A stretch of DNA of 64,000 bases from a virus. The position numbers were made by a program, and so were the translations under genes. The notes beneath the pieces were generated by a model. The model was not told the DNA's origin. It was given only the letters and a program-made list of their open reading frames with translations, and ran no database searches. Location of the stretch: IMG/VR virus record IMGVR_UViG_3300032356_000182, positions 1-64,000 of that record; one strand, 5' to 3'. This document shows positions 36,233-56,853 of the stretch, one piece after another. Each line of letters starts with the position of its first letter. Within the stretch, counting starts at the first letter, position 1.

Positions 36233-38230
36233 ATGACAAGAGATTCTCATAGTTTTTTTCGCGAATGGCTTTCTTCTAGTTTAACGAAGAGCTTAGGAGG
36301 TTTAGGCTCTGGTCATTATGCTCATGCGGGGCGTCCAGGTTTACGAGGAGGATCAGCGCCTAGTAGAAAAAAAGCTACCATATCTGGAGAAAATCACCCA
36401 GCAGCAGATATTCGAATTGTTATCGGGAAATCTGAGCATCTTCCAGAAGACAAGCGGTCGTCGAGTAAGCGCCAAGCTTTGGCTAAAACTATAAGAGATA
36501 TGTTGTTTAGTATTAATCCGGCTTATTTGCAAGGATTGAGAAAGATAACAACAGATCCTCTTCCAGGTCAAGGAGAGTGGCCTCGCGATATAGGCGGATA
36601 CTATACTCAATATGCTGATATTCATTTGAATGTTGCAGCCCTCTCTGGCGAAGACGAGGAGGAAGATATCAGACAAATTCTTTTGCATGAGATTGGCCAT
36701 CATGTGACACTTCGGCTTGGTCAGAAAGATCCGAAAGATTATGCTGGTCTTCGTGATATATGTTATCTGGATAGTAAAGATACGGTTTTCACGCAGCGGA
36801 AGCTAGATAGTTTTAAGAAAACCGTCCCTCTTGAGAAAGATGCTGCTGAAGACTATCTAATTGATTTTGGTTTGCGTCCTTATTCTCTAACGAATAGATT
36901 AGAGTTTGCCGCTGATGTTTTTGCTGTGATGATGCTTGGCGACCCTCTCAGGAAGACAAATCTGGCAAAGATGCTTGGCTTTGATAATCTAGAAGGTATC
37001 TTTCGTGTTGATGTTCCTCTATCAGGATATGGTCTTCCGAAGGTGGTTAAGAAGTATGAGCCTCAGATAGATGATTTAGGAGAGCTTGTTTCTTCAGTTT
37101 TGGCTCTCGGCGGCCCCGGTTCAGGCTTTCATGGCCATGCGGGTCGTCCTGGTAAAAGAGGAGGCTCCGCTCCTAGAAGTGACTTCGCTAATGCATCTGA
37201 TGAAAAGGAATTTAGAGATTTAGTTTTTAGGGAAAGAAGGTCGAAAGAGTCTAAAAAGTCTTATGAGTTTGAAAAGAACAAGCATGATTTTAGAGTTTTA
37301 CTGAAGCTTATTGATGATAGTGGGGGTCGAGATTTTCATCAGCAAGTTGCAGATTGGGGCAGATATGAAGGTCGTCTGTCTCCAGAGCGCGAGGAGATGC
37401 GGAGAAGTCTTGCTAATTGGGAATCTAAATTCCATCTTGATATATCTAGATTGCTAAATGGAAAGATTGCTGACGACTCTCAGCTTACGGCGTATGGAAG
37501 TATAAGTGAAGCTGAGCGGGATATCTCTGGTCTGGACGCTGCGTTTAGGGAAGCTCCTTCTCTGCCTCATGGCATAATTGTTAGAAGAGGATTGATGGCC
37601 GCATCTAAGGCGGCGGCTACTTTTTTGAGTGCAAAGCCTGAAGATCTTGTAGGGAAGATTTTGCTGTGTAAATCGTTTGTTAGTACTACGATAAGCAAAG
37701 ATGTTGTTAGGGATTTCTCTCGAGCTGGCTTGTTGGGGACGAAAACGGTCACTTTTAATATTAAAGTCCCGGCTGGTGAGAAATTCATTGCAGTGTCTAG
37801 TGCCGAATCTGAGATTCTGTTAGATCGAAATCTGCAGTTTGAGATTGAAGATTTTTCGATTACTTCTGGAGAATATCAGGAATACAACTATACGCTAAAG
37901 GTTGTCCGAGGAAAAATTCCAGATATTGAGCTTTCTGAGCCAGCTGTTTTCCTCGGCGGTCCTGGATCAGGTTATCACGGTCATGCTGGCCGCCCCTCTT
38001 TCCAGGGCGGTCCTGCTCCGAGAGGTGTTGGATTCGTAGAAGAGAGAGAAGAACAGGCACCTTATTCTGAAAAGCAGCCAGCTTTGTCTAAGCCTAGTGT
38101 ATTGGATGATTTTAGAGATGTTTTGAAAGCTTCTTTGCTCGTGAGGCTCAGAGCTTGTAAGCCGAATAGTCGTCTGGCTCGGAGATTAAGAAAGATATCA
38201 ACCTGCCTTGATGCGGCAGAGGAAAGGTAA
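36233..38230 (+). CDS. Tagged effector polyprotein 1: tag-zincin peptidase / tag-VIP2-like ADP-ribosyltransferase / tag-short basic tail
   Basis: Tags at 36293, 37106, 37952; HEIGH...YS...EFAAD; RRG...FVSTT...ESEILL. Confidence 0.85.
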   Translation: MTRDSHSFFREWLSSSLTKSLGGLGSGHYAHAGRPGLRGGSAPSRKKATISGENHPAADIRIVIGKSEHLPEDKRSSSKRQALAKTIRDMLFSINPAYLQGLRKITTDPLPGQGEWPRDIGGYYTQYADIHLNVAALSGEDEEEDIRQILLHEIGHHVTLRLGQKDPKDYAGLRDICYLDSKDTVFTQRKLDSFKKTVPLEKDAAEDYLIDFGLRPYSLTNRLEFAADVFAVMMLGDPLRKTNLAKMLGFDNLEGIFRVDVPLSGYGLPKVVKKYEPQIDDLGELVSSVLALGGPGSGFHGHAGRPGKRGGSAPRSDFANASDEKEFRDLVFRERRSKESKKSYEFEKNKHDFRVLLKLIDDSGGRDFHQQVADWGRYEGRLSPEREEMRRSLANWESKFHLDISRLLNGKIADDSQLTAYGSISEAERDISGLDAAFREAPSLPHGIIVRRGLMAASKAAATFLSAKPEDLVGKILLCKSFVSTTISKDVVRDFSRAGLLGTKTVTFNIKVPAGEKFIAVSSAESEILLDRNLQFEIEDFSITSGEYQEYNYTLKVVRGKIPDIELSEPAVFLGGPGSGYHGHAGRPSFQGGPAPRGVGFVEEREEQAPYSEKQPALSKPSVLDDFRDVLKASLLVRLRACKPNSRLARRLRKISTCLDAAEER

Positions 38231-38424
38231 TCAATCTTTTGAGGAAACAGCAGATGATCTAGAAAATCAACTCGGTCAAGCTAAAAATCTGAAAAACCAT
38301 AAGCCAAAATCAGAATAGAGCGATTTTTTAGTCTTTAGACATGCTTATTTTCAAGCTGTTGTTTTATTTGATTGCCTTAAAACTAGATCTTTAAGAAAAA
38401 TCTAAAAGGAAATAAAAATAAGTT

Positions 38425-38646
38425 ATGTCTTCATCTTGCGATAATGGATTTATAGGTTGTCCATCTTCTAATTGTCCGCGGGATAAATTAGCTAGACTCG
38501 GGCTTGTTAGAAATAAGCCGGGCATCTATCTCTGGTGCAAAAACTGTCACCGAGAGATAGGCTTTACTTTTGCGGAGCTCTTAGCTAGATTTGAGACTGA
38601 TGATTATATTGAAGAAAAAGCTAGCGAGCTTTCTAGGCGTTTTTGA
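38425..38646 (+). CDS. Small Cys4 zinc-finger protein (Mu Com-like spacing, tentative)
   Basis: CPSSNC...LARL...IYLWCKNCHREI. Confidence 0.5.
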   Translation: MSSSCDNGFIGCPSSNCPRDKLARLGLVRNKPGIYLWCKNCHREIGFTFAELLARFETDDYIEEKASELSRRF

Positions 38647-38716
38647 TAGGTTTGCTATGAGAGAGGAAAGAATTGATTTGAAATCAAATATTCTAACTTA
38701 AGATGTTTCGAGGGTT

Positions 38717-41380
38717 GTGTATATGAAAAGACGGGAATATGTCGTTGAAAGTCTTGCCCAGAGGATTTCTATCAAGCTTTTGAAAAAACTTGGAGGTCCT
38801 GGTTCAGGTCATCACGGTCATGCAGGAAGACCTGGTAAGCGTGGTGGCCCTGCTCCTTCTTCTGGAGGTGCCTCTATCGGTGTATCTGATGGCAAAGAAT
38901 ATGAAGATTTGGCTTTCAGAGATAGAAAGCCAGGAGAATCTGAGCAATCTTATGAATCTGATAAACATAAGCATAATGTTGATGTCCAGCTGAAGCTTGT
39001 TGAGGACAGCGACAGTCTAGATTTTCATCGGCGGGTAGTCTGGGGTGAAGGTAGGGATGATCTGTCTCAAGAATATAAAGAGATACAAGAAGGAATTATC
39101 AATTGGCAAAGTGAGTGTCATCTTGATATAGGTAGATTCTTAAGTGGGGAGATTGAAGATGACTCCCAGCTTAGCGTTTACGACAGTATAGATGAGCTTC
39201 GGGAGGACATCTCTAGATTGGATCTCGCATTTGAGAAAGCTCCTTCCTTGCCTTATGGTGTAGTTGTTAGAAGAGGATTAGTTAGTTCTTCTGGGCTCGC
39301 TTCTCTCCTCTTGAGCAGAAATCCAGAGGATCTTGTCGGAAAGGTTCTGTTTTGCAGATCTTTTATCAGCACTTCAATTGATAAGGATATTGCTGATCTT
39401 TTCTCCCAGACCTCTCTATCCAAAGGAGACAAAACAGTTACTTTTAGTATCAAAGTGCCGGCTGGAGAGAAGTTTATAGTCTTGGCTAACGACGAGCTTG
39501 AGATTCTGCTGAATCGAGATTTACGATTTGAGATTGAGGGTTGTTCTATCATTCCGGGGGAATATGAGAAATATGAGTATCAGCTTAAGGTTGTTCGAGA
39601 GAAACCTCCAGACATCAAATTTTCTGAACGAGTGCTAGCTCTAGGAGGTCCTGGTTCAGGATTTCATGGTCATGCTGGTCGCCCTGGTAAACGTGGTGGC
39701 TCTGCTCCGTCAAGTGGTATTAGTAAACTATTCTCAATCGTGCTTAAGGATCGGAAGACAGCTGAATCAATTATAAGCAATGAGTTAAAAGCAAGTTATT
39801 ACGATTTAGACTGCGATTTAGACTCATTTTTGAAATCTTTTGAGAAGCTAATTGAAGATGTTGTTGACAAGCTTTCGCGGGAATATTTCGAAGGTGTTAG
39901 CAAGATAACATTTGATCCACCGGAGGGATTTAAGTGGCTTACTAGTACAGAGGGCATGACTTCTCTTGGTATCTATGACGTTTTTCGACAAAGTATTCAT
40001 CTAAATCCTGTGCTTTTGCTCCCGTTTTATCGAGATAAAGCTCAAAAGGTTTTTGTTCATGAGCTGGGCCATCATGTTACAGACAATACTGGAAAGATAG
40101 CGAAAGATCTAGTTTCAGAAAAAGTGAATCCTTCAGTGGATGATACTGTATTTAATGATGATGTGCTGCATGAGTTACATGGGTTTTATTTAGTTTCCGG
40201 TCCTGGAAGCTTGAATAGGCTAGGTTTGCGAGAGTATTCGTTTTATTCAAAAGATGAGCTTGCTGCCGATGTTTTTATGACGTGGGCTCTTGGCTCTGAG
40301 TCTCAAAAAGAGGCTCTGGCCGAATTCTTGAAGGTAGGTTCCTTAGATGATCTCTTTGCGAAATCAAAGGCGATGAAATTGGCAGATGCTGTTGTTAAAC
40401 TGCCAGTGAAAAAGTTAGGAGGTCCTGGTTCAGGTCATCACGGTCATGCAGGAAGACCTGGTAAGCGTGGTGGCTCTGCTCCTTCTTCTGGGATGAGAAT
40501 ATCTGAAAAGAATGTTGCTGAAGAAAGTCAAGATATGGGGGCTGAATTAGTTAAGCAAGTTCCAGTTTTTTATGGATTCTCTGGCATTAGAGAATTTGTA
40601 GAAAAGATTGCTTCAGCAGGTGTGAAGTTTCATACTAATTTGTTTCCATCGAATTCAACTTTTATAAATTATTTGAGATATGCTGGAGTTGACTTATCTG
40701 AGTGCATGTCCGAAGAGATGGAAGTAAATGGTGAATACCATCAAACGCTAAGAGCTTGCAAGATTAGAGGTATGCTTGCTCTAGATGAAGCGCTATCTGA
40801 AGTAAATCCTGACGTTTCCACTGGCAGATATGGTGTTGGAGATAGCATTCAGGTTCAGTGGACGAGGCATTCAACTGATGAAGGGAATTTTATTGATGCT
40901 TTTCAAACCCTTTCAGCTGAGGAGCAAGGTGTCCCTATCAGAAGTCGAAGAGCGAAGCATGGTTCTAGCAAGTTTAAGGATAGCGCTACTGATACTGATT
41001 GGAAAATGGCTAAGGTCGCTTATGAAAGCGTTAAGAGAAGAACTCAAGAATTTTTCGAATCGAAGGGCTATGATCCTGAAGATGAAGTTTTGATTTTTAG
41101 AGGACAAGGACAAGGGCAATTTCAGGGTAAAGATATCAAAAACGGTAGCTATATCAAGTGGGAAGATATTGATTTGCATCCTCTGTCTTCCTGGTCTTTT
41201 AATCCTGCTACCGCGTATTCTTTTGCAGATGGTGGCAATGGAGTTGTTATGGTAGCAACTATAAAAGTAAAAGATATCATAAACTATTCAATCACAGGAT
41301 GGGGCTGCATCAATGAGGAAGAGGTGATTGCTCCGTGCAGTAAGCTAAGAAATATGCGTGTTATCTATGGGAGGCAGTAG
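38717..41380 (+). CDS. Tagged effector polyprotein 2: VIP2-like ART / zincin peptidase / divergent R-S-E ART
   Basis: Tags at 38789, 39641, 40415; RRG-FISTS-ELE; HELGH...YS...ELAAD; IFRG-SSWS-EEEVI. Confidence 0.85.
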   Translation: MYMKRREYVVESLAQRISIKLLKKLGGPGSGHHGHAGRPGKRGGPAPSSGGASIGVSDGKEYEDLAFRDRKPGESEQSYESDKHKHNVDVQLKLVEDSDSLDFHRRVVWGEGRDDLSQEYKEIQEGIINWQSECHLDIGRFLSGEIEDDSQLSVYDSIDELREDISRLDLAFEKAPSLPYGVVVRRGLVSSSGLASLLLSRNPEDLVGKVLFCRSFISTSIDKDIADLFSQTSLSKGDKTVTFSIKVPAGEKFIVLANDELEILLNRDLRFEIEGCSIIPGEYEKYEYQLKVVREKPPDIKFSERVLALGGPGSGFHGHAGRPGKRGGSAPSSGISKLFSIVLKDRKTAESIISNELKASYYDLDCDLDSFLKSFEKLIEDVVDKLSREYFEGVSKITFDPPEGFKWLTSTEGMTSLGIYDVFRQSIHLNPVLLLPFYRDKAQKVFVHELGHHVTDNTGKIAKDLVSEKVNPSVDDTVFNDDVLHELHGFYLVSGPGSLNRLGLREYSFYSKDELAADVFMTWALGSESQKEALAEFLKVGSLDDLFAKSKAMKLADAVVKLPVKKLGGPGSGHHGHAGRPGKRGGSAPSSGMRISEKNVAEESQDMGAELVKQVPVFYGFSGIREFVEKIASAGVKFHTNLFPSNSTFINYLRYAGVDLSECMSEEMEVNGEYHQTLRACKIRGMLALDEALSEVNPDVSTGRYGVGDSIQVQWTRHSTDEGNFIDAFQTLSAEEQGVPIRSRRAKHGSSKFKDSATDTDWKMAKVAYESVKRRTQEFFESKGYDPEDEVLIFRGQGQGQFQGKDIKNGSYIKWEDIDLHPLSSWSFNPATAYSFADGGNGVVMVATIKVKDIINYSITGWGCINEEEVIAPCSKLRNMRVIYGRQ

Positions 41381-41383: not shown

Positions 41384-42025
41384 ATGATTGATAATCCGTT
41401 AGTTTTGGCATTGAAGACATCTAAAGGCTATACTGAAGAGTATGATGACTCTTGGACGATTCCGTTTCTGGAAAACTATATGGAATATCCAGCTATACAG
41501 ACTTTTTTGAACAAAGTTCTAAATGGCCCGTGGATGTCACAGGCTGATGAAATGAGGGCTGAGGTTCCAGCATTGACTATTTACGAAGAAGATGAAAAGC
41601 TGTTTTCTTATTTTCTAAATACAGCAAGGGCTTTGGAAAGTGTTCTGGAAAGTGAATTTGCTGATGTTCCTCCTGATATTGAAAAATTCTACATTCTGAC
41701 ACCGAAAACAGAAGATTTTCGGCAGGTTATGAAGATATCAGGTTTTACGCCTAAACTTCTCGAATCTGTTAAGTTCGATGTATGGGGATTTTATATAGCG
41801 TACCCTTCTTTGCCAGATGCTCTGGAAAATTTGGAAGACCCTGCTGATGATATGATTGCTTTTGAACTTTCAGAATTGAACAGAGCTTTTCCACTGTATG
41901 GTGGATATTTGACTGAACTTCGTCAAACTTATGTTGTTGAAGATGCTTATGAAGATTCTGGTGGATTGATTGTTTTGGCGGTGAAAAGATTAGATAATGC
42001 TCTCAACAACTTTACGAGTAGATAG
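41384..42025 (+). CDS. Acidic hypothetical protein
   Basis: 213 aa, D/E-rich, between polyprotein 2 and terminase. Confidence 0.7.
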   Translation: MIDNPLVLALKTSKGYTEEYDDSWTIPFLENYMEYPAIQTFLNKVLNGPWMSQADEMRAEVPALTIYEEDEKLFSYFLNTARALESVLESEFADVPPDIEKFYILTPKTEDFRQVMKISGFTPKLLESVKFDVWGFYIAYPSLPDALENLEDPADDMIAFELSELNRAFPLYGGYLTELRQTYVVEDAYEDSGGLIVLAVKRLDNALNNFTSR

Positions 42026-43769
42026 TATAGCTGATACTCTACTTCAGCTCTATGGCAGAGAGGAAGTTAAGAAGGTTCTATCTCCTATATCTGTTCTCGA
42101 CTGGGCAAAGACCTATCGGAGGATAGGCGGTCAGCCTTTCAGTTTAGATGAATACCCATGCTTAGAGAAGATTTATGAAGATAAGCATCCCTTCAAGGTA
42201 ATTCAAAAACCAGCTCAGGTTGGTGTATCCGAATATCTTATCAATCTAGCTGTTCACGCTATGGATTGTGGAGTATCTTACTACAATTTGAAGAAGGCCA
42301 GATTGAATGTTGGATATATTTTTCCAACACATTCCTCTCTGGCGGAATTTGCTAAGGAACGCCTACTGGCTGGAATTTTTGAAGAATCTGATTACTTAGG
42401 CGGCATTGTTAGAGCACGAGAAACTGGAAAGTCGAAGATGTCAATCCGATCTTCTTCAGTATTCTACAGAATTAAAGAGTCGTTTTTTCATCTTCGTGGA
42501 GCTTGGAATCCAAGCGTGTCGCTAAAATCTTTTCCAGTTGACTTATTGATAATTGATGAGCTGGACGAATGTCCTGATAGAGCAGTTGCTCTAGCTGAGA
42601 AACGACTTCGTGCTTCTGACTTGCGCTATCGAGTTTATGTCTCTACTCCTACATATCCAGGTAGAGGCATTAGCTATTATTATTCTTTATCAGATCAGCA
42701 TATCTGGGAGATAAGATGTCCTAATTGTGGACTATGGCAGGAGCCAGATTTTTTCAATAATGTGTTTTTGCGAGAAGATGATCAGTTTCATCCTTATTCG
42801 GTTTGGAAATCAATAGCAGCGAACAACATAACCGATAAAGAGTTTGTGTTCGCTTGCAGAGCGTGCTTTTTTCGACTAAATAAGTTAGCAAAAGGTCGCT
42901 GGAGAGCGCAAAACCCGGGAAGCTATATTAGAGGTTACAGAATACCGGGGCTTGTTTCACCTAAAGTTCCATTGATTGAGCTTGTTAGAAACTCTCTGCT
43001 TATGCGGCCTGCTGAAATTCAAGAGTTTTGGAATTCGGATTTAGGCTTGCCTTTTGCACCAAGCGGTGGATCTCTTAATGAGAGTGTCCTGAGTTCTTGT
43101 GAATTGAAAGGTATCAGGGAGTTTAAGGATCCTAATCATGTTGAATACTCTGTAGCTGGAGTTGATGTTGGTGCAAAGTTGCATCTAACTATTGAGTCTC
43201 CAAGAGATGATGGAAGATGGGAGACAGTCTATATGGCTGAGTTAGATGATTTTGAAGAGCTGGATTTGCTATTTCATCAGTTCAAAATCAGAAGCTTGGT
43301 CGTTGATGCCTATCCTGAGACTCGAGAGGCGAAGCGTTTGGCTGAGAGATTCAGAGGTTTAGTTTGGCTAGGTAGATATCCGAATATGACTAGCTTAGAG
43401 ACTGCAGTATTCCGGGATGACAACGATGAGAGAGTTCCTCTGGTAGATATTGCTAGGACTCAAGCTATGGATGAGGTTACTGTGGACATCATTCAGCAGA
43501 AGAGTTGCTGGCCAGAAGGTACGAGATATCAATTTGCTGACTTCTATTCTCAGCTATGCGCTCCTGTTAAAACTAAAGTTGAGTCAACTAGATCGGATGG
43601 TTCTGTTATTGAAAAATACTCGTATGTAGAAAGTGGCCCTGATCACTGGTTTCATTCTAGAGTTTATTCATATATCGCTAGGAAACGGGTAGCTGGGTGG
43701 ACTCCTACTGAAGATGCTGATTCTCTAGTTGGAAAGGATGAGGTATCAATCTTCGGAGTTGAGTTCTAA
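41997..43769 (+). CDS. Terminase large subunit, lambda gpA-like
   Basis: QKPAQVGVSE, LIIDELD, VSTPT, SDQHIW..CPNCG, LGLPF, AGVDVG, PDHWFH. Confidence 0.92.
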   Translation: MLSTTLRVDSIADTLLQLYGREEVKKVLSPISVLDWAKTYRRIGGQPFSLDEYPCLEKIYEDKHPFKVIQKPAQVGVSEYLINLAVHAMDCGVSYYNLKKARLNVGYIFPTHSSLAEFAKERLLAGIFEESDYLGGIVRARETGKSKMSIRSSSVFYRIKESFFHLRGAWNPSVSLKSFPVDLLIIDELDECPDRAVALAEKRLRASDLRYRVYVSTPTYPGRGISYYYSLSDQHIWEIRCPNCGLWQEPDFFNNVFLREDDQFHPYSVWKSIAANNITDKEFVFACRACFFRLNKLAKGRWRAQNPGSYIRGYRIPGLVSPKVPLIELVRNSLLMRPAEIQEFWNSDLGLPFAPSGGSLNESVLSSCELKGIREFKDPNHVEYSVAGVDVGAKLHLTIESPRDDGRWETVYMAELDDFEELDLLFHQFKIRSLVVDAYPETREAKRLAERFRGLVWLGRYPNMTSLETAVFRDDNDERVPLVDIARTQAMDEVTVDIIQQKSCWPEGTRYQFADFYSQLCAPVKTKVESTRSDGSVIEKYSYVESGPDHWFHSRVYSYIARKRVAGWTPTEDADSLVGKDEVSIFGVEF

Positions 43770-43923: not shown

Positions 43924-45399
43924 TTGAATGGACTAGATTTAAGTGCGGCCTTAGCTTCAAAAATTTCAGAAAAGTTAACTCAACGTCTCGGCGGCCCTGG
44001 TTCTGGTCATCACGGCCATGCTGGCCGACCCGGTAAACGTGGTGGATCGGCTCCTTCTAGAAAAGGGATTGGAGCAGCAGAGAGCATGGAGAGTGAGAGC
44101 AGCTCAATTGGTGATCTCTATGCTCATGCATCAGAGAGAGCGAAGGAGCTGGCGAGGAAGACCGGTTTGCTTGCCTTAGATTCTGCTGCTGAGGCTTATC
44201 TAGCTAAGATTTCAGAGTTTTCTGAGAAGAAAGTTTCTGTAAAGTCTTTCTTAGAGGCGGTACGCTCTGAAGAAAAGTTTTATTCTATATGTGGTAAAAC
44301 GTCCGAGGATGATTTTACAGAGGAAGATGATTCTCGTCTGTTTAATTACTTTCGGAATTGGGTTGAAAATGAATATCTGCGAGCGCGACTCAATGTGGCT
44401 ATGTCTGAAGATGAAAGACTTGTTTTTGATAAGCTAGTTGACGCATATACTGATGTTTCTGATGATGGAGACTGGGAGTCTGTCTATGACTATAGTTTTT
44501 ATGCAGGCGCGGAAGCTGAAAAATATTTTAAGAAGATGGATCCGAATGAGAAAAAACTTCTTCGCAACGTTTTCAGAAAAATAGCGATTGATGAGATGTA
44601 TAGACACGTTATTGAAAATTTTGGATTTTACAACATAGACTTTGATAGAGAATTGGAATCTAATATTGGATTTAATTATTCAAACGAGACTATACTTTAT
44701 GATGCTATAGTGTATAATCCGATTAGGCCTAATGAGAAATATGATGCGTACTTCTCGAGACTAGCGTCAGTGTTGCTAGATGATGGCTTTCTTAGCGAGT
44801 ATGATGAGTTTCCGATTAAAAAAATGAAGACGATTTCTTCGGTTAGTTCTGAAGAGCGATCAGCTGTTGAGAAGGATATCTTCAGTTCCTGGGATAAGAC
44901 AAATCACAGCAGTTTTTCTGTCAAAGTTCTTGGAGTTTACCGAATTGGTTCTCCTTCGCAGAATGTGGTTGAAACTCAGAAAGCTCTTGGGAATATCCGA
45001 TCGGGTTTTTATCACGGCACTTCAATTAGACGTGCTCTCAATATTGCAGGTGGTGGATTCCGATTGGTGAGCAAACCCAAGACAGGACAGATGCTCGGGC
45101 CAGGGATATATCTTACTGATACTTCGTCTAAAAGTGTGCAGTATGTTGGAGAGGTTTACTCTCGCGACTCGGATAGAGGCGTATTGCTAAGAGTTAGCGC
45201 AGCGCTAGGCAAGGTAGCCAAGGTAACGAATCTTTCCTCATTTCAACAGCTGCCTGATGGTGACACTTATTTTGCTGCAAAGGGCGAGAGGTATGAAGAC
45301 TTCTTTCTGAAGAACTCTGAGTGGTGTGTAAAGAATCCAGACGCAATTTCTGTTGAATATTGGATTGATATGCAAAAGACTCGGAGTGCAAGAAAATAA
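43924..45399 (+). CDS. Tagged effector: PARP-like (H-Y-E) ADP-ribosyltransferase
   Basis: Tag at 43987; FYHGT, GQMLGPGIYLTD..SKSVQY, NSEWCV. Confidence 0.85.
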   Translation: MNGLDLSAALASKISEKLTQRLGGPGSGHHGHAGRPGKRGGSAPSRKGIGAAESMESESSSIGDLYAHASERAKELARKTGLLALDSAAEAYLAKISEFSEKKVSVKSFLEAVRSEEKFYSICGKTSEDDFTEEDDSRLFNYFRNWVENEYLRARLNVAMSEDERLVFDKLVDAYTDVSDDGDWESVYDYSFYAGAEAEKYFKKMDPNEKKLLRNVFRKIAIDEMYRHVIENFGFYNIDFDRELESNIGFNYSNETILYDAIVYNPIRPNEKYDAYFSRLASVLLDDGFLSEYDEFPIKKMKTISSVSSEERSAVEKDIFSSWDKTNHSSFSVKVLGVYRIGSPSQNVVETQKALGNIRSGFYHGTSIRRALNIAGGGFRLVSKPKTGQMLGPGIYLTDTSSKSVQYVGEVYSRDSDRGVLLRVSAALGKVAKVTNLSSFQQLPDGDTYFAAKGERYEDFFLKNSEWCVKNPDAISVEYWIDMQKTRSARK

Positions 45400-45768: not shown

Positions 45769-46515
45769 ATGATAACCAGATTTGGTTTGAGTGATGCTTT
45801 AGCTTCAAAAATTTCAGAAAAGTTAACTCAACGTCTCGGCGGCCCTGGTTCTGGTCATCACGGCCATGCTGGCCGACCCGGTAAACGTGGAGGATCTGCT
45901 AAGACAAAGGTGGCAGTTTCGGCAGCTAAAGCTTCTGGTGGATTTAAGCTAAAACCAAGTCTTATTCCGCTTGCTAGAACTTCTCTGCATTATGATACTT
46001 TTGAAGATTTTGAGAGAGACTACACCACAAACAACTTTCACGGGACTTATGTTCATCTGACTAATGATGCTGATTTCAGGGTTGATCCAAACAGAGCTCC
46101 TAGAGATGCATCTTCTATGTCCATCGGCTCGAGCTCTTATCCAGGTTTGATGGTGACAACTGATCCTGAAAATTGGGATTTTGTGCTTAGTGGAAAAGGC
46201 ACTGTTTCACCAAAAGACGCTGCTAAATTTAGAAGAAAGTATATGGCAATTATTGATTTGTCTTATCTGGTTCCTGGTAAAGATTATATAAGTGTAGCTA
46301 GAGGCTTCGGGCATGAAATTTTTGTCAGAGACAATCTTGATAAAGTTAAGGTTTTGAAAGTTGTTCCTATTGATAGAGGAATTCGGCAATGGAATTATCG
46401 GTATAACAGAGTAATGCCAAACAGTTCTAGAGATCTGCGAGATATCTATAACTGGGCAAGAGAAAACAAAGATAGACTATTGTTAGATAAAATAAAATCT
46501 AAGGAGGAAAGATGA
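45769..46515 (+). CDS. Tagged effector, unknown domain (possible His-type ART fold)
   Basis: Tag at 45835; YVHLT...PGLMVT...HEIFV. Confidence 0.7.
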   Translation: MITRFGLSDALASKISEKLTQRLGGPGSGHHGHAGRPGKRGGSAKTKVAVSAAKASGGFKLKPSLIPLARTSLHYDTFEDFERDYTTNNFHGTYVHLTNDADFRVDPNRAPRDASSMSIGSSSYPGLMVTTDPENWDFVLSGKGTVSPKDAAKFRRKYMAIIDLSYLVPGKDYISVARGFGHEIFVRDNLDKVKVLKVVPIDRGIRQWNYRYNRVMPNSSRDLRDIYNWARENKDRLLLDKIKSKEER

Positions 46516-46941: not shown

Positions 46942-47010
46942 CGACAAAAGTTGTAGAGGATTTACTTTTTGATAGAATTTTCTCTTATTAAATATCGGGA
47001 GGATAGTTAT

Positions 47011-48591: not shown

Positions 48592-50082
48592 ATGGCAGTA
48601 AAACCAGCGAGACCTGATTTAACCGAAATCGGTGTAACCGGCACGCCTATCTGGTCAGGCCAGATATTTCCAGATGATAATGCTTTGTTTAATGATATTC
48701 CTACCGCTATGGAAATCTATAGGAAGATGCGCAATGATAGCACTCTAAAAGCTTGCTTTCTCGTCAAGAGTTTGCCTATCAAGGCAACTAGATGGTGGGT
48801 AGAACCTGCTGATGAGAGTCCTGAAGCAGCGGATGTGGCTAACCAGATTGAAGAAAATCTTCTTAGAGGCATGACTGTAAATTGGACTAGAATTCTTCAT
48901 GAGATATGCTTAAAGTTTATCTATGGCTTTAGCATTTTTGAAAAAGTTTGGGAGGAAGATGGCGAAGGAAGAATTAAGCTAAGAAAATTAGCTATACGCC
49001 AAGCTGAAACTTTAAGCAGGTGGAATTTTGATGATAGCGGGGGGCCGAAAGAGATGGTTCAGATGGCTTTTTCCCCCAACAAAGGCATGGAGACATTCGT
49101 TATCCCTATTGAGAAACTAGTTGTGTTTGTTAATAATCAAGAAGGTTCTAATCTACTGGGCAGATCTGATTTTAGAGAGTGCTATAGAGAATGGTGGACG
49201 AAGGACAGATTGATGCGTCTTGAATTGATAGATGTTGAGCGTGATTCTATCGGAGTTCCGGTCATAGGCCTTCCAGAAGGTGCAAGCAAGGCTGATCAAG
49301 CAGTTGCTAAGAGCATTGTTACGTCAATCAGAAAAGATGAGGGTGGTGGGGTAGTTATTCCTCAGAGATGGCAGTATGGGTCTTGGCCAGCTGGCGGAAC
49401 TAATCGAGTAAATTCTTCAGAAATTATCAGAAGATATGACAGACAGATGTTAGTTTCTTGGCTAGCTCAGTTTATTGATTTGGGTTCCGGTGAAGTGGGC
49501 TCTTACGCTTTGTCTGAAGATCAGACAAATTTCTTCTTGATGTCTCTAGAAGCTGAAGCAAACTATATAGAAGATTGTTTCAATCGTTATGTGATTCCTC
49601 AGATGTGTGATTATGGAGGATATGCTCTGTCAAAGAGCGGAAAGTATCCGAGGCTTCGTCATCGAGATATCGGAAGATTTGATGCGAAGGCTTTTGCTGA
49701 TATCTTGAATTCACTTCTGCAGGGCGGCTGGATTACAGCTAGAGGAAAGCTGGATGAAGAATTTTTGCGAAAGAAGCTTTTCTTACCGGAACCTGAGAGC
49801 TACGAACAGCCTCAGCCTTCTGTGGAAGCGAATATTTCAGAAGAGCAACCCGAAGAGGAAAATCCCAGCGCGATGATAGAGAAAGAAACACCGAAAAGAT
49901 TTGGAACGTCAAAAATTATCAAAATCACTCCTGATCTTAGCGATGGTCAAGAAAATGAGAGCGAATATCTAGCTGGACTTCGTGCCAAGCTTATTCGTAC
50001 TTTTGAGGAATCCTCTAAAGCTAGAAAAAGTGCGTTAGAAAATCTTGAGGACAGCGAGTGGGAACGATATGAAAACAGCTAG
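48592..50082 (+). CDS. Portal protein, DUF935/Mu gp29-like
   Basis: EIGVTG, YGFSIFEKVW, LLGRS, ERDSIGVP, GSYALS, NRYVIP. Confidence 0.9.
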   Translation: MAVKPARPDLTEIGVTGTPIWSGQIFPDDNALFNDIPTAMEIYRKMRNDSTLKACFLVKSLPIKATRWWVEPADESPEAADVANQIEENLLRGMTVNWTRILHEICLKFIYGFSIFEKVWEEDGEGRIKLRKLAIRQAETLSRWNFDDSGGPKEMVQMAFSPNKGMETFVIPIEKLVVFVNNQEGSNLLGRSDFRECYREWWTKDRLMRLELIDVERDSIGVPVIGLPEGASKADQAVAKSIVTSIRKDEGGGVVIPQRWQYGSWPAGGTNRVNSSEIIRRYDRQMLVSWLAQFIDLGSGEVGSYALSEDQTNFFLMSLEAEANYIEDCFNRYVIPQMCDYGGYALSKSGKYPRLRHRDIGRFDAKAFADILNSLLQGGWITARGKLDEEFLRKKLFLPEPESYEQPQPSVEANISEEQPEEENPSAMIEKETPKRFGTSKIIKITPDLSDGQENESEYLAGLRAKLIRTFEESSKARKSALENLEDSEWERYENS

Positions 50083-50134: not shown

Positions 50135-51292
50135 ATGCCTACACCAGAGCAGATAAAAGATAGAATTGAAAAACTGACCAAAACTCAGCGACTTGTGCAT
50201 CTTGTTTACCGGAAAACTGCAGATGATATTTCCGATACTTATGAAGTTTTGTTTGACATAGGTCGGAGGACCTACGAGCAGGCTTTGACATCCATGGCAG
50301 CGCAAGTAGGATGTGGTAATAGATTTGCACACCTTTCTGATGGACTTATATTGAAAGAGCTATCTGAACTCTATTATTCTCATGCCGCTTCTATTGTAGC
50401 TACTTATAATTTTGACTTAGCTGGGGCAATTCAGAGCATCTATAGCGAGAACAAATATGCTAATCGGTATTATTATGCGAAAAGACTAGATGAGTGGGAA
50501 AAGCTGCGTAGCTCGTGGAAAGACGATCAGATTTTGCAGATGACTATCGCTTATGCTAAAGATATGGCTGTTAGAGATTTCGCTAGATTTAACTTGACTG
50601 ATGGATATGGGATTTTTGAAGGGCCGGACGATTCTATAACTTGCGATGCTTGTAAGAGTTTGATAGATGGCAATCCTTATAGCCTTGAGGACTTTGCGAA
50701 AATCAGCTGTCCTGTTCATGTTAATTGCCGGCATAATAAAGCTATCTACGCTGGGAAGTTTGATAATGTGGCTTGTGAGGAATTGTGGCTGGGAGGAGTT
50801 GGAAAACTATCTGATGGAGACGCAGGTATCGTTAAGTTGTCAGATGAGCTTAGGCAGAGGGATTGGCTCGATATCTATTCTGAATTTGGTAATCAGGCAT
50901 ACGCGGACATTTTATCATTAAAAGATGCGTATGATGTTTCCAAGGGAATTGATTTTTCTAGGAGATGGGGACTTTCCAGAGGAGTATATTCAGGTTTTGT
51001 TTGGAAATCATCAGAAAACTATACGATTATTGATGAAGTTCAGCGCACTGTTTTGCCGTATTCGGTTGTTGTTAAGTTAATGAATCCATTCGTGACTTTG
51101 AGGGTTTGGGATGTTTCTAGAAAATACTCTGAGCTCAAGCAGGCTTGCGAAGATCTTAGCTGGGATGAGATAGGCCGCTATCTTGCGCAACTTGGTTATG
51201 ATTCGCTTTCTTTAATTGAGAATGACGATAGGCGAATCGTATATTTTGGGAGAAGTCAGAACTTGAGGTTTTTCCTAGGGAAGAGCGCTTGA
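50135..51292 (+). CDS. MuF/SPP1 gp7-like head morphogenesis protein with C-terminal extension
   Basis: DSITCDAC...CPVHVNCRH directly after portal; extension KLMNPF...LGYDSL...IVYF. Confidence 0.8.
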   Translation: MPTPEQIKDRIEKLTKTQRLVHLVYRKTADDISDTYEVLFDIGRRTYEQALTSMAAQVGCGNRFAHLSDGLILKELSELYYSHAASIVATYNFDLAGAIQSIYSENKYANRYYYAKRLDEWEKLRSSWKDDQILQMTIAYAKDMAVRDFARFNLTDGYGIFEGPDDSITCDACKSLIDGNPYSLEDFAKISCPVHVNCRHNKAIYAGKFDNVACEELWLGGVGKLSDGDAGIVKLSDELRQRDWLDIYSEFGNQAYADILSLKDAYDVSKGIDFSRRWGLSRGVYSGFVWKSSENYTIIDEVQRTVLPYSVVVKLMNPFVTLRVWDVSRKYSELKQACEDLSWDEIGRYLAQLGYDSLSLIENDDRRIVYFGRSQNLRFFLGKSA

Positions 51293-51329: not shown

Positions 51330-54300
51330 ATGAATTCTGAAATCAATCTAAAGAAGCTCGGTGGCCCTGGGTCGGGATTTCATGGCCATGCAGGCCGTCC
51401 TGGTCGACGTGGAGGTTCAGCTCCAAGAAAATCATCAGAGGTTAAATATCATGACTATCAGGGAAGTCAGGGTCCTAGAGAGGCAATCTACAGATTTTAC
51501 CAAGAGCTTTCTGATAAAGAGCGAGAGAAGATTAAAGAGTATATCAATATTCCCAGCGATCAGGTGAGGGAGCCTTTCTACTTCTATACAAGCGATCCAG
51601 TTTCCGAGGTTCAGAAGTTATTCTTTTTATATACAGGTGGCGGCTTTAGAGAAATAAATAACTATCTTCGGAAAGACAAAAAGTCAGCGAAACCTGAATC
51701 TTCAATCTATCAGGTGTTGACTTCAGATGAAATTGAGAAGGCTGTGCAAACTATTGATCGTTTATTTCAAGAGAACAGCAGCACGCTTCCTAGAAATACA
51801 TATCTTTACCGAGGCATTTCTGGTGCATCTAATCTAGCTGCTTCTTTAAGATCTAGATTGGAAAAAGGTGAAACAAATATTGAGTTTTCGGACTTAGGTT
51901 TTGTTAGCACTTCGCTCTCTCCGAGTTCTGCCGCGTTTTTTGGACATCTTCATTATCGTAGTCAGATGCCTAATCAGCGACAGATTATGTTGAAGATAAG
52001 AGCTCCTAAAGGGCTTAAGGTTTTGCCGGTTCTTGGCAGCGAGGCCGAAGTCATTTTGAATCGGGGCTCACGTTTTAGAATAGTTAAGGTGATTGGAGAG
52101 AAACGTTATAGAGATTATCAAAAACAGTATCGGTATTCGGGCTCAGTATTTGATGTTTTTGAAGTAGAACTGGTACAACAAAAGAATGAGAAAAACTTAA
52201 GCGAAGCTATTCGTCTTGGGGGCTCGGGTTCAGGTTATCATGGTCATGCAGGACGTCCTGGTAAGCGTGGTGGCTCTCTTCCTCGAAATGCATTATCATT
52301 GGATTCTCTTGTTGCTAGAGGTATTGAGCCTTGGACGATGAGTCTTTCTGAATTCTACAATATCATGGGTGTGAAGAGAGTTAGCGATAGCGATAGCAAG
52401 ACGATGTCTAAGGAAGAATATCAGGCTGCTATTGAGAAAGAATTTAAGGTTGAAGATCTTTATGACAGGGCTATAAAAGAGAGGTTGGCGCTTGGATTGC
52501 CGGTTTCTGATAAAGTTCTTGAAGATGAAGGCGCTTGGTTAGTACGCCAAGCTTTGAATTCTTTGCAGGATTTTCCACAAGAGTCTTATCACGTTTGCAC
52601 TGCAAAGAAGCAGATTCTGGAGGATGGCTTGAAATCTAGACAAGAGCTTGGTATGAAGGCCGGCATCGGTCTTGGTGGTGGAGATGATTCTACTATAAGT
52701 GTCACTACCAACTTCAGATTGGCGAAAGATATCTTCAAGGTTATGCGAGAGGCACAGCAAGTAGCGGCTGGGAAGCTAACTATTCGTGAAATATGGGAAG
52801 ATGCAAAATCATATGGCGAGGAATGTGCTGCTAGGTGCTTAACTTATTTTCTTCCGCCCCCTTCTTTAGGCTTGCCAGAGTTTAAGTATGATTTCAAAAA
52901 TCCTGATAACGTTCCTGCTGGCTTGAAAGAGCTCCTTGAGGGCTATGAAACTATATACTCATCTGGAGATCCAAACAAATCATTTCCAATACGCGGCTCT
53001 AGGTGGCGTCAAGATAAGAAAGACCCGAAGGTTTGGAAAAGAAAACTTGCGAGGTCCGAAGTTTTAGAGAGGACTTGGCGGTTTTATTCGGAGCATTTTC
53101 TTCGGGTTCGGCAAGAAGCTGGGGGACCTGAAGATCCGCTGTTCTTCGGAACAGATTGGAAAAAATTAGCGAAAGTTAAATCTGAAAATATCGCTATCTT
53201 GAAAGTCAGACCAAAACCAGGGGCAAAAGGTTTTCCGGTTTCTGGTATGGATGAGTGGCGTATCTGGACGGGCAAAGCTTTAGAAGTTGAGCCGATTGAT
53301 TTGAAATCTCTAGTAGAGCAAACTATTCTTGTTTATATGGATGGCTTAAAGCCTTTTTCAAGAACGATGAAATCAGATAAAAAATCAGGTATCGGACAAT
53401 CGGACAAAAAATCAGAGCTCATCAGATCCATTGATAAACTTATTGACCTTTTGCGGCTGGGCGGCCCTGGTTCTGGTCATCACGGCCATGCTGGCCGCCC
53501 TGGCAAAAGAGGAGGTTCTGCTCCAAAAGAATATAGAGCCTATACCAGAGAGGAATTTGATTCTGTTTTTCAATCTTTGACTACACCTGAATATCGAGAT
53601 AGATACAATTGTGGAGATTCTCGCTTTGTTCCGAAAAGTCAAGATGATTTTTCTGCTTTTAGCGTTTGGAGATATGTTAATGATGCTTATTTAGGTATCA
53701 ATTCTGTTCTCAGAGAGGCACAGAATACAGGCAAATCTATCGAGAAAGTAACAGATTTTCAAAGATCTTCTCTAGATGATAAGTTTGATACGCTTGATCT
53801 TATCGCTGGCATGGATGCTGCTTTTGCTGAGGCACCTAGATTGCCGGAGCCGACAGTTGTTTATCGCGGTATTCCGTTTGATTCGGTTCTTAAGCGAAAT
53901 TTTGATAAATTGGAGCCGGGCTTTATTATAAAAGATCCAAAATTCGGCAGTACTAGTTTGAGTAGAAGTCTTGCTGAAAAATGGGCTGGGTTTCCTCCAG
54001 AGTATTTGACTCCAGAAAACGAGATAGGTGCTTTGCTAGAGATACGATTGCCGAAAGGAACCAAATTCATATATCCAAACACAAGCGAGCAAGAGCTTAT
54101 TCTAGATCGTGATGGGGAATATCGAGTTATTGATGTTCGTAAAGAGAAAGCAGTTGTTCAGTATAAATATCGAGATCCACGGGTTTATGTGCAGCACGTT
54201 TTAGTTTTAGAGCGGCTGCCTGAGAAGCAGAAAGCTAAAAAATTAGGCGGCCCTGGTTCTGGTCATCACGGCCATGCTGGCCGACCCGGTAAACGTGGAG

Positions 54301-55130
54301 GCAGTGCTCCTAGAAGTATCTACGATTATCAGGATTATACTGGAAGAGAAGCTGATTTCTTGGCCGATTATCAATCTACAGAGGAAGGTCAGCGATTTTA
54401 TAAGGAGTACTTGACTCGACTAAAAGCTCTTGTGTTTAGAGAAAATATGTCGATGCCAAAGGAAGTTCATGAGAAGCTGAAGAGTCTGATTAATTATATA
54501 AACTTAGGTCATAGTCCTATAAATAGATATTTGCGTAATTCGGATGCATTTGTTCCCTATGAAGACGAGGAAATACCTGAGATAAGAAAAAGGATATCTG
54601 ATTTAGATGCTTTGTTCAAAGAAGTACCTGGTTGTTCTAAAGATATGATTGTTTATCGAGAAATTCATCATCTATCACAAACTGCAGAGAGATTTGTGAA
54701 TGAAAAAGATAGATTGATTGGAAAAATCATCAGGGATGAGGGTTTTTGCAGTACAACAATAGACAGAGACGTAGCGGAAAAGATGGATCGTGGTCCCACA
54801 TCTTGGTGGTATGATCATATGAGGATACCTGGAGAAGGGATACCAGCTAGAGTTTTATTTAAGATAAAAGTTCCGAAAGGAACCAGAGGCATCTATATCG
54901 AAAATGAAGTAAGAGAAGAGAACGAGTTTCTCTTGAACAGAGGTTTATCTTTTCGGGTTGTTAGCGTGGAGAAAAATCATCAGCCAGCATATTCCAGTGA
55001 AGGATATGATATCATAGCTCATGATCAGTATGAATTTACCTTAGAGCTTTTGCCTGAGGTTAAAACTTTGGCTGAGATGCTTATCTTTCGATATAGAGCT
55101 AAACTGCGTAAAGAGAACAACCGATGCTAA
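51330..55130 (+). CDS. Tagged effector polyprotein (1266 aa): three VIP2-like ARTs plus one unknown His-type ART-like domain
   Basis: Tags at 51357, 52215, 53457, 54243; YRG-FVSTS-EAE; YHVCT..ILEDGLK; YRG-FGSTS-EQE; YRE-FCSTT-ENE. Confidence 0.88.
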   Translation: MNSEINLKKLGGPGSGFHGHAGRPGRRGGSAPRKSSEVKYHDYQGSQGPREAIYRFYQELSDKEREKIKEYINIPSDQVREPFYFYTSDPVSEVQKLFFLYTGGGFREINNYLRKDKKSAKPESSIYQVLTSDEIEKAVQTIDRLFQENSSTLPRNTYLYRGISGASNLAASLRSRLEKGETNIEFSDLGFVSTSLSPSSAAFFGHLHYRSQMPNQRQIMLKIRAPKGLKVLPVLGSEAEVILNRGSRFRIVKVIGEKRYRDYQKQYRYSGSVFDVFEVELVQQKNEKNLSEAIRLGGSGSGYHGHAGRPGKRGGSLPRNALSLDSLVARGIEPWTMSLSEFYNIMGVKRVSDSDSKTMSKEEYQAAIEKEFKVEDLYDRAIKERLALGLPVSDKVLEDEGAWLVRQALNSLQDFPQESYHVCTAKKQILEDGLKSRQELGMKAGIGLGGGDDSTISVTTNFRLAKDIFKVMREAQQVAAGKLTIREIWEDAKSYGEECAARCLTYFLPPPSLGLPEFKYDFKNPDNVPAGLKELLEGYETIYSSGDPNKSFPIRGSRWRQDKKDPKVWKRKLARSEVLERTWRFYSEHFLRVRQEAGGPEDPLFFGTDWKKLAKVKSENIAILKVRPKPGAKGFPVSGMDEWRIWTGKALEVEPIDLKSLVEQTILVYMDGLKPFSRTMKSDKKSGIGQSDKKSELIRSIDKLIDLLRLGGPGSGHHGHAGRPGKRGGSAPKEYRAYTREEFDSVFQSLTTPEYRDRYNCGDSRFVPKSQDDFSAFSVWRYVNDAYLGINSVLREAQNTGKSIEKVTDFQRSSLDDKFDTLDLIAGMDAAFAEAPRLPEPTVVYRGIPFDSVLKRNFDKLEPGFIIKDPKFGSTSLSRSLAEKWAGFPPEYLTPENEIGALLEIRLPKGTKFIYPNTSEQELILDRDGEYRVIDVRKEKAVVQYKYRDPRVYVQHVLVLERLPEKQKAKKLGGPGSGHHGHAGRPGKRGGSAPRSIYDYQDYTGREADFLADYQSTEEGQRFYKEYLTRLKALVFRENMSMPKEVHEKLKSLINYINLGHSPINRYLRNSDAFVPYEDEEIPEIRKRISDLDALFKEVPGCSKDMIVYREIHHLSQTAERFVNEKDRLIGKIIRDEGFCSTTIDRDVAEKMDRGPTSWWYDHMRIPGEGIPARVLFKIKVPKGTRGIYIENEVREENEFLLNRGLSFRVVSVEKNHQPAYSSEGYDIIAHDQYEFTLELLPEVKTLAEMLIFRYRAKLRKENNRC

Positions 55131-55143
55131 GGGAGGTAGAAAC

Positions 55144-56853
55144 ATGCGTATTCTAACTGATGGAGGAAAATACATAACCAGAGATAAAAATCGTAAAAAT
55201 AGTAGCAAATATCTTCATGCTTTGAGGTTGTTGCTGAGATGGAAAAAATTTAGGAAACTTGGAGGTCCTGGCTCGGGTTTTCATGGACATGCCGGACGTC
55301 CAGGTTACGTTGGGGGCTCTGCACCTTCTGGAGAGAGCATGTCTGGTAATGAGAATGTTCCGAAAGAGAAAGATGCGGAATATCAAGCTTCTACGATAGA
55401 TGAATATGCTTCAAAAGAACTTTCACGGTTTAGAATAAAAGATGAGATTGAGAAGCATCAAGTATCTGGTTCGCTATCTTCAAAGACGGTTGGGCTTATT
55501 ATAGCGAATGGCCGGGCGGTGCTTGAAAATCATGCGAGCGCTTTGAGTTCAGATACTAGAGGTCTTGCAGAAGGAATTCTTGATAGTTATCGTGCTGTCC
55601 TGCTGGAAGGCTTGAGAGATGGATCTCTTGCCGATGTTTCTACTGGTGATTTGGATTTTGTGTTAAGCGATTCGATAGAGAAGCTGATCGTGCAAGAGAT
55701 TGAATCAAGAAAAAGAACGCTGGGTGATCACGGTATTCGACATGCTATTTCAAATGCAAGAAATTCTTTAGATATACTGAATTCTTTAGCAGAAGGTGGG
55801 CAGAAGATAACCGCACGAGATAAGTTGATAGCTTTGCAGACTCAGCTTATTCATGATGTAGGTTTTGTCGCTGAGAGTCAGCGGAAAAGCTTTGATAATG
55901 AAATTCATCCTGAGATTTCGGCTGAATATGCTAGAAAACCGGAATATGAGCGAGTTTTCGGAGAGAAGTTTAATGATTTTTTAGAGACGGTTAGAACTCA
56001 TGATGGCGTTGATATTGATTGGGAAAGAGAGCCCGTAAAATCAGCGGTTAGGACAGCAGATAATTTTGCTTTGTTTTCCAGAGAAAAATTGCCAGATTTG
56101 TTTAATCGGATTCCTGGAGCTCTTGATAAATTAGCTCAGCTGCAGTTAGCTATTGCAGGAAATAAGGCGCAAGAGGTTTTGCCTATAGTTAAAGCTGATC
56201 TGCATAGGCTTATTGATAAAAGCAATTTGGATAAGAATTTGAAAGAAGATCTGCATCATGCGGCTGATGAGGTTAGCATAATCACAGGTAAGTTTACTCT
56301 TGGTATGGTAGCTGGAGCTTTTGACTCTTTTTCTTTTGATGATGGTGTTCTTGATATTTATCTCGTTCAGCGCCCAGATAGAGAAATCTTGAATGGTCTC
56401 TTTGACTTAGGGGAAAGACAGTTCAATAAATTTATCAAAGCCTATGAAGCTAAGGGAAGTTTAGATTCTGGCTTAGAGCTTAGTAGAGGTGGAAAGAAAA
56501 TATATAGAGTCGTTACTAAAGCAGAAATGGGTTCTAGCGTTTTGAGTTCTTTAGCTTCTGCCAGTGTTCGGCCATTACTGGCAAAAGCTGTTCGGATGAT
56601 TGATTTCTCTAAAGTTAGCAAACGAAATCGACAGGCTGCTTTCAATGCCATTAGCAAAGCTTTAATAGATAAAGCTACGCCGAGCGAAATCGCAGAGATA
56701 AAGAATCTCATCCTATCTGGCAGAGATGCTAGTTCTATATTAGGCTTCAAGCTCACAGCTAAAGAGCAGGAATATATCTACTCTAAAGTTGAGCTAATGG
56801 CTTATTTGAATGCAAACGCGAGGATATTGCTAAGAAAATCAAGATTAAAATAA
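55144..56853 (+). CDS. Tagged effector: HD-domain phosphohydrolase
   Basis: Tag at 55258; DHGIRH...IHDVG...H...THD...TADN. Confidence 0.8.
   Translation: MRILTDGGKYITRDKNRKNSSKYLHALRLLLRWKKFRKLGGPGSGFHGHAGRPGYVGGSAPSGESMSGNENVPKEKDAEYQASTIDEYASKELSRFRIKDEIEKHQVSGSLSSKTVGLIIANGRAVLENHASALSSDTRGLAEGILDSYRAVLLEGLRDGSLADVSTGDLDFVLSDSIEKLIVQEIESRKRTLGDHGIRHAISNARNSLDILNSLAEGGQKITARDKLIALQTQLIHDVGFVAESQRKSFDNEIHPEISAEYARKPEYERVFGEKFNDFLETVRTHDGVDIDWEREPVKSAVRTADNFALFSREKLPDLFNRIPGALDKLAQLQLAIAGNKAQEVLPIVKADLHRLIDKSNLDKNLKEDLHHAADEVSIITGKFTLGMVAGAFDSFSFDDGVLDIYLVQRPDREILNGLFDLGERQFNKFIKAYEAKGSLDSGLELSRGGKKIYRVVTKAEMGSSVLSSLASASVRPLLAKAVRMIDFSKVSKRNRQAAFNAISKALIDKATPSEIAEIKNLILSGRDASSILGFKLTAKEQEYIYSKVELMAYLNANARILLRKSRLK

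Follow-up and report, generated by a model that had tools for sequence, protein, structure and literature searches.

A glycine-rich tag that heads effector modules among phage head genes, probably as part of a two-part signal for capsid cargo

The virus record IMGVR_UViG_3300032356_000182 is complete at 95,738 bp and has direct terminal repeats; the window analysed here covers its first 64,000 nucleotides (nt). Between positions 36233 and 56853 it holds 15 in-frame copies of a glycine-rich peptide of 23 residues, LGGPGSG(H/F/Y)HGHAGRPGKRGGSAP, referred to below as the tag, which regular-expression and profile scans located in seven open reading frames (ORFs), all on the plus strand. These ORFs appear to encode polyvalent effectors, mostly ADP-ribosyltransferases (ARTs) together with zincin-like peptidases and an HD/phosphodiesterase-like hydrolase, which would be made late alongside the head genes and bound for the capsid interior. 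We think it probable that these head-packaged effectors bear a two-part signal, comprising a phage-specific protease site followed by a universal cargo label. Judging from sequence comparison, the tag most likely marks the points where the head protease cuts the cargo free inside the capsid.

A preliminary description of this DNA had placed the 15 copies amid the head genes and had them end just before the prohead protease gene. This was confirmed: the tagged ORFs are interleaved with the genes for TerL, a Mu-type portal and a MuF-positioned protein, and the last of them stops 121 nt before a Mu-like head protease/scaffold gene. Tagged coding sequence totals 13.4 kb, or 14% of the genome (the earlier estimate was about 13 kb), and with 15 tags this phage is an unusually rich case. 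A genome-wide profile scan of the whole record recovered the 15 copies, each with an E value of 1e-8 to 1e-11, and no others, in keeping with the reported absence of the tag from replication, capsid and tail genes. Mean identity among the copies is 75% for nucleotides versus 89% for amino acids. The median pairwise ratio of nonsynonymous to synonymous change (dN/dS) is 0.08, and the invariant Gly, Arg, Pro and Ser positions are encoded by three to five different codons. Because of this low dN/dS and the varied codons at invariant residues, we attribute the conservation to selection on the tag peptide, as first proposed, and not to gene conversion. The residue that precedes the tag is Leu in all 15 copies, mostly as [K/R/A]-L and often after a short amphipathic helix; the leaders of the tagged ORFs are 9-40 residues long and end in this invariant Leu.

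The tag extends far beyond this phage. A profile built from the 15 copies was run against 1.84 billion representative proteins and matched 2,990 clusters (at 50% identity) at E ≤ 1e-3, 564 of them at E ≤ 1e-10, with up to nine copies per protein. From 892 tags in 245 proteins the consensus is [K/L/R]-GGpGSG-[N/H][F/H]-GHaGRPG-[E/K/Q][V/R]-GGSaP, in which 11 positions are at least 97% invariant. An ungapped core is matched by 85% of these tags and the length is fixed at 20-23 residues; His, Arg, Pro and Ser are kept throughout, with no insertions or deletions. Exactly five G-x-y triplets follow GGxGSG in 663 of the 892, with Gly at G6, G9, G12, G15 and G18, although G9 is replaced in about 15% of tags. 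Five such triplets give a collagen-like or polyproline-II periodicity. Structure models predict the tag to be disordered, with a pLDDT of about 30, as expected for a linear motif.

The placement of the tag within these 245 proteins is strongly polar. In 69% of them no more than 60 residues separate the N-terminus from the first tag, only two have a C-terminal tag, and the median module length is 206 residues between tags and 259 residues behind the last tag. This polarity indicates that the tag is a header of domain-sized cassettes rather than a symmetric linker, and it supports the earlier view that the tag sits at the N-terminal edge of a module. The accompanying proposal that the tag is portable also held up, since it heads unrelated enzyme families across the 2,990 clusters. 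Elsewhere the cargo includes ARTs of four Pfam families, ART-PolyVal, Zeta-toxin kinases, 2H phosphoesterases, topoisomerase IB, ATLF-type zincins, UDG, Acb1 and LPD1, and roughly three quarters of the tag-headed modules have no Pfam family. This repertoire is that of the published polyvalent proteins (PMC5512222).

The residue immediately before the tag is fixed within a phage and differs between phages. Across 30 loci with at least three tags each, the modal residue before GG accounts for a fraction of 0.992 of the tags within a locus, versus 0.489 after shuffling, and positions -1 to -4 are much less fixed. The same pattern is seen in 176 independent multi-tag proteins (0.918 versus 0.526 shuffled). 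The classes comprise Lys, Leu, Arg, Asp, Glu, Asn and Ala, and some carry their own upstream motif: L-R/K-x-L↓GG in the Leu class, L-V-E-R↓GG in the Arg class and K-T/V-x-N↓GG in the Asn class, where the arrow denotes the presumed cut. These data fit a cut between that residue and the first Gly made by the phage's own head protease, and they fit the free domains beginning GGPGSG that had been predicted.

Head-protease families were then compared with residue class in 47 records. A canonical DUF2213/phrog_530 head protease was found in nine records, all nine of the Asp class. Mu-like_Pro was found only in this phage (Leu) and in L039 (Phe and Leu), and Peptidase_S78 in two Lys-class loci. Four loci of the Leu class and one of the Asn class have a divergent DUF2213-like protease, which is joined in cis to tagged cargo. 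Peptidase_S77, the T4 gp21 type, was found in none of the records searched. A ClpP-like match in L033 sits 18 kb from the head genes and may not be a head protease. The Mu-like and DUF2213 families appear to be distantly related. The comparison suggests that the residue before the tag partly follows the head-protease family. In this phage the protease/scaffold protein (Mu-like_Pro, phrog_976; 56975-58186, plus strand) itself contains a long acidic run, DEDLEDLEDLDDEDLEE, followed by RKKL↓GESPEA, and its RKKL↓G (residues 242-246, at the domain junction) has the pattern [K/R][K/R]L↓G that also occurs ahead of the tags. The protein may cut itself here, between its protease and scaffold halves.

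The genomic setting elsewhere also points to the phage head. Two narrow tag patterns, scanned against IMG/VR, returned 60 loci, which reduce to 47 once redundancy is removed; most have 2-11 tags in adjacent ORFs on the same strand. We considered the 101 nearest large untagged ORFs from 43 non-redundant viral loci, and these include 15 MuF proteins, 16 TerL proteins of three Pfam types, 13 portals of three types and 6 capsid proteins. The preliminary description had proposed a profile search for an association with the head module, and these neighbours bear that association out. Where an untagged domain of at least 150 residues stands ahead of the first tag (n=29), it is a portal in 10 cases (Pfam), a MuF or minor-head protein in 5-9 (PHROGs) and a member of a head-maturation-protease family in about 3. 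The C-terminus of the portal faces the capsid interior, and portal-fused tagged cargo should therefore lie inside the head. The portal, MuF-type and head-protease fusions thus place at least those cargoes within the capsid. The C-terminus of the phage Mu portal, known to be cut by the Mu protease, carries no tag.

Relatives of this phage's own head genes are scarce among the tag-bearing loci: jackhmmer searches begun from its portal, capsid and protease returned almost none there. L033, L041, L061 and L064 are the only loci that have its GpA-type terminase together with a MuF-like gene. In these four loci Glu, not Leu, precedes every tag, and the Mu-like protease was not found there; they form, with this phage, a possible natural swap of cut-site class.

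The cargo of this phage was assessed ORF by ORF. ORF A (36233-38230, 665 residues) has three tags: a leader is followed by a divergent copy, LGGLGSGHYAHAGRPGLRGGSAP (36293-36361), a zincin-like module with an HExxH motif, a second copy (37106-37174), a VIP2-type ART, and the most degenerate copy of all (37952-38020, ending GRPSFQGGPAP). ORF B (38717-41380, 887 residues) has a leader and three tags (38789-38857, 39641-39709 and 40415-40483), which respectively head a VIP2-type ART, a second HExxH zincin-like module and an ART-like module with an R-S-ExE signature. ORF C (43924-45399, 491 residues) has a leader and one tag (43987-44055), then a region of about 260 residues without assignment and a PARP catalytic domain. 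The one tag of ORF D (45769-46515, 248 residues), at 45835-45903, follows a leader helix and precedes a 203-residue module with weak ART leads only; the leaders of ORFs C and D are identical. ORF E (46969-48018, 349 residues) comprises a leader, a tag (47062-47130), a VIP2-type ART and a second tag (47947-48015) with the stop codon immediately after it. ORF F (51330-55130, 1266 residues) has four tags, the first of them nine residues from the start codon (51357-51425, 52215-52283, 53457-53525 and 54243-54311), and these head an ART, a 391-residue module without assignment and two further ARTs. ORF G (55144-56853, 569 residues) has a basic leader and a single tag (55258-55326) ahead of a 508-residue module. 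Two of the 15 tags thus lack cargo, as had been noted: one is followed only by a 69-residue tail (ORF A) and the other ends at a stop codon (ORF E).

Six modules match ADPrib_exo_Tox (PF03496, the VIP2/Alt-type ART) at 36-172 bits against a cut-off of 23.4, and Arg, S-T and Glu are invariant across their alignment; the ART modules A2, B1 and E1 (second of ORF A, first of ORFs B and E) are close paralogues. The PARP catalytic domain (PF00644) occupies residues 309-459 of ORF C and scores 57.1 bits against a cut-off of 26.7. The initial cargo calls therefore stand at Pfam cut-offs for the six VIP2-type ARTs and the PARP domain, and support is weaker for the two zincins, the R-S-E ART and the HD hydrolase. 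The two HExxH modules (A1 and B2, in ORFs A and B) are paralogues of each other (7.5e-16), with SprT-like/Zincin_1 matches of 16-19 bits, below the cut-offs of 22-26 bits. The R-S-E module (40484-41377) belongs to a family that is frequent among tagged proteins (49 proteins and 9 loci) and conserves YRG, SSW[ST] and ExE. Its best matches in a fold search were all ART folds (ExoT/ExoS, CNFy domain 4, Vis, PARP12 and Tpt1), none reaching an E value of 1e-3, and its predicted model is confident in the C-terminal 120 residues only. The ORF G module (55327-56850) has an H...HD motif, and a language model gave leads, to be read as leads only, to SidE_PDE and HD families. A SidE-family phosphodiesterase lead would suit the ADP-ribose theme of the other cargo, as the phosphodiesterase domain of that family processes ADP-ribosylated substrates. 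Two further modules, at 45904-46512 (ORF D) and 52284-53456 (ORF F), had been listed as ART-like candidates and stay unassigned: hhalign of both, and of the last module of ORF B, against a profile of the six ARTs gave no support, and a single-sequence AlphaFold model of ORF D had a pLDDT of 37, too low to use.

We propose the following route for these proteins. The short phage-specific stretch with its fixed last residue would probably be the non-prime side of the site cut by the phage's own Mu-like head maturation protease. The universal tag, GGxGSG with its five G-x-y triplets, would then stay on the N-terminus of each freed module and would probably serve as a common label for the loading, retention or presentation of head cargo. 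We infer the cleavage at X↓GG, the encapsidation of free-standing tagged proteins and their injection. A more specific version, which we hold only tentatively and judge on the unlikely side, makes the tag a universal cargo-loading peptide of tailed-phage capsids. Any protein bearing it behind the phage's own protease site would enter the prohead, perhaps by tag-tag assembly of the five G-x-y triplets on tags anchored to the portal, and would later be released and ejected into the host.

Several observations weigh against this account. No tag-bearing protein was found in cultured-phage records, where a low-complexity filter may hide matches, or in the PDB. The correlation with protease comes from few, phylogenetically clustered loci, and most Lys-, Arg- and Glu-class loci have no detected protease family. 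In the six head proteins scanned, chance alone would give about 0.5 occurrences of the RKKL↓G site. An all-against-all BLAST revealed no recognisable protein family common to all tag-bearing loci. A near-invariant motif of 20 residues far exceeds the needs of a cleavage site, and with a leader of about nine residues, as in ORF F, little is gained by removal, so that cutting may not be the point at N-terminal tags.

A rival explanation confines the tag to the prime side of a protease junction: it would be a flexible, conserved element that presents the substrate to the related head proteases, without any address function, and cargo would enter through its portal, MuF or protease fusion or through the variable leader helix, much as the capsid-targeting sequence works in T4. 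The phage-specific residue and the class-specific upstream motifs would suit this, the fusions would anchor cargo without any label, a short helix does precede many tags in this phage, and the distant relationship of the Mu-like and DUF2213 proteases makes a shared substrate groove conceivable. However, some twenty invariant residues of fixed length exceed any known prohead protease site, and a separator would be of little use on the free-standing single-module proteins that the tag also heads, with leaders down to 9 residues. The leaders, moreover, have no feature that is conserved across phages. We regard this explanation as unlikely, though still worth serious consideration. Processing might instead follow injection, carried out by the zincin-like modules of the same polyproteins or by a conserved host protease. 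Iyer et al. (2017, PMC5512222) propose such a role for metallopeptidase domains, this phage has two HExxH modules, and zincin-type modules recur as tagged cargo elsewhere (ATLF, M90 and Mx1, with 13-21 proteins related to modules A1 and B2). Yet most tag-bearing proteins and loci yielded no zincin-like module, and the residue before the tag goes with the head-protease family wherever a family could be assigned. A universal host protease, moreover, would leave unexplained why the P1 residue is phage-specific, and we give post-injection cutting only a slender chance of being right.

The regular glycines raise the prospect of self-association, with G-x-y triplets forming collagen-like or polyproline-II assemblies, free cargo co-assembling with anchored tags and multi-tag proteins acting as hubs of an internal cargo body. 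Gly at every third position from G6 to G18, the five triplets without indels, and the presence of the same sequence on anchors and free cargo are all compatible with this; no partner family is common to all loci, and self-recognition would explain why the tag is conserved among phages with unrelated types of portal, terminase and protease. A run of five triplets lacking hydroxyproline is nonetheless short for a stable triple helix, the replacement of G9 interrupts the repeat, and the models give disorder only, so we consider such assembly improbable. Least credible is the reading in which the peptide has no role and the tag serves as a neutral linker or as a joint at which effector cassettes are shuffled by recombination of the DNA. 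Modules have been shuffled and duplicated here, as seen from the paralogues A2, B1 and E1 and the shared leader of ORFs C and D, and certain tag pairs have more than 30 identical nucleotides in common. This reading is disfavoured, and we give it very little credence, in view of the low dN/dS with synonymous codons at invariant residues, the family-wide retention of His, Arg, Pro and Ser, and the strict polarity that puts tags at protein N-termini and not at C-termini.

Three other candidate functions were dropped. An AT-hook-like role in DNA binding, suggested by the GRP core, does not suit the family consensus GRPGEV, which has an acidic residue; Ni-assisted S-x-H hydrolysis and a 2A-like skipping peptide lacked family-wide motif support.

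Much of the general system has been described before. Polyvalent proteins, defined by Iyer, Burroughs, Anand, de Souza and Aravind in 2017 (PMC5512222), are multi-enzyme proteins whose packaging, processing and injection are predicted. The tagged proteins resemble them in combining unrelated enzyme domains in one polypeptide, in having virion genes as neighbours and in their frequent fusion to MuF or portal proteins, and ART-PolyVal and LPD1, Pfam families that arose from that work, occur among the tag-headed modules. In this phage, disparate activities share a polypeptide in ORF A (zincin-like module and ART) and ORF B (ART, zincin-like module and R-S-E ART-like module), ORF F carries three ARTs and one module without assignment, and all of these are encoded among late or virion genes (TerL, portal and head protease) of a complete record. 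The difference lies in the junctions: that paper describes no glycine-rich or linker motif and assigns processing to metallopeptidase domains, whereas here there is a fixed 20-residue header with a phage-specific residue before it, present also on single-module proteins.

Phage T4 offers a second precedent, in that its internal proteins and Alt have a capsid-targeting sequence and are cleaved by gp21 (PMC9026906, PMC9958956). The traits that this phage would share are head-packaged enzymes that include an ART, an N-terminal leader, a defined prohead protease site and delivery with the DNA. There is no sequence similarity, however, and the T4 address is a short leader that is removed, whereas here the conserved element follows the presumed cut and would remain attached to the cargo. 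Unlike the T4 signal, the tag recurs across phages whose portals, terminases and proteases belong to different families. MuF polymorphic toxins (Jamet et al. 2017, PMC5576092; Apk2, PMC10083569) similarly attach variable toxin domains to a head protein encoded after the portal gene. In this phage the MuF-positioned ORF is separate and untagged, and no tagged ORF in the window has an N-terminal MuF domain fused to a C-terminal toxin; the tag is also rare in bacterial genomes, whereas MuF toxins are typical of prophages. An analogy can be drawn with encapsulins. Their cargo-loading peptides are short, Gly-rich and disordered, and they direct unrelated enzymes into an HK97-fold shell; they are about 10 residues long, usually C-terminal, and co-vary with the shell. 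The likeness to the tag goes no further than analogy.

The preliminary description had presented a candidate new system. The general idea is already published, namely head-associated polyvalent effectors, MuF and portal fusions and T4-style processing, and the tag is the new part. It is not mentioned in the polyvalent-protein paper (PMC5512222), in the MuF-toxin papers (PMC5576092 and PMC10083569) or in a survey of NAD and ADP-ribose systems; no Pfam or NCBIfam model covers it, no tag-like sequence is in the PDB, and literature searches by motif string and topic gave no description of it. The tag thus seems to be undescribed in print. Among 185,579 bacterial species the strict consensus DNA pattern gave three hits, on contigs of metagenome-assembled genomes, and a window-specific pattern gave no confirmed locus. 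When 50,697 phage records, cultured or deposited, were searched with the tag by tblastn, nothing usable came back, though the low-complexity filter may hide matches.

If the tag does mark head cargo, sequence alone could show which effectors thousands of uncultured phages inject, and the modules without a Pfam family would offer a great many candidate enzymes for host takeover or anti-defence. The pairing of a phage-specific cut site with a universal label would amount to a simple rule by which multi-enzyme polyproteins are loaded and released, and could guide the engineering of capsids for protein delivery. On the tentative reading of a universal cargo-loading peptide, the tag would act as a 'signal peptide' for phage-delivered effectors, recognisable in the sequence and open to reuse in protein delivery.

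The remaining genes of the region give the setting of the tagged ORFs. Every sizeable ORF in the window is on the plus strand, and a replication block precedes the head block, with a UvrD-type helicase, DnaB, RecA, a family A polymerase, a sliding clamp and a clamp loader. TerL is of the GpA type (41997-43769), and an overlapping ORF just upstream of it (41384-42025) had no family match. The portal protein (Portal_Mu) lies at 48592-50082 and is followed by the MuF-positioned minor head protein candidate at 50135-51292. The latter gave no match in Pfam or PHROGs, so the earlier MuF assignment has no family call behind it, but it contains ITCDACKSL...CPVHVNCRH (a CxxC...PVHVNCRH motif), which is reminiscent of the Cys/His motif in MuF/SPP1 gp7 proteins. 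Its homologues in L033, L041 and L061 are untagged N-terminal domains fused to tagged cargo, and because of the motif and these fusions we retain it as a MuF candidate. An untagged, probable major capsid protein with a weak match to the P22 coat protein is encoded at 58659-59651.

No tRNA genes were found in 1-64000. GC skew is strong and uniform over the whole window, with an excess of G over C of 0.18-0.34 on the coding strand. Genes are otherwise tightly packed in this region, but three gaps of 450-785 nt (35448-36232, 38231-38716 and 46516-46968) hold no ORF of at least 80 residues, and no module remnants were detected in the non-coding gaps or past the C-terminal tag of ORF E. The gap at 46516-46968 contains a short frame with a zinc-ribbon-like CxxC...CxxC. 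The UvrD-type helicase (5093-6775) has a topoisomerase-type C4 zinc ribbon at its N-terminal end. Two genes for group-1 glycosyltransferases, one directly after the capsid genes (60178-61203) and one in the replication block (19131-20384), and a radical SAM gene (18145-19134) may have a role in DNA or virion modification.

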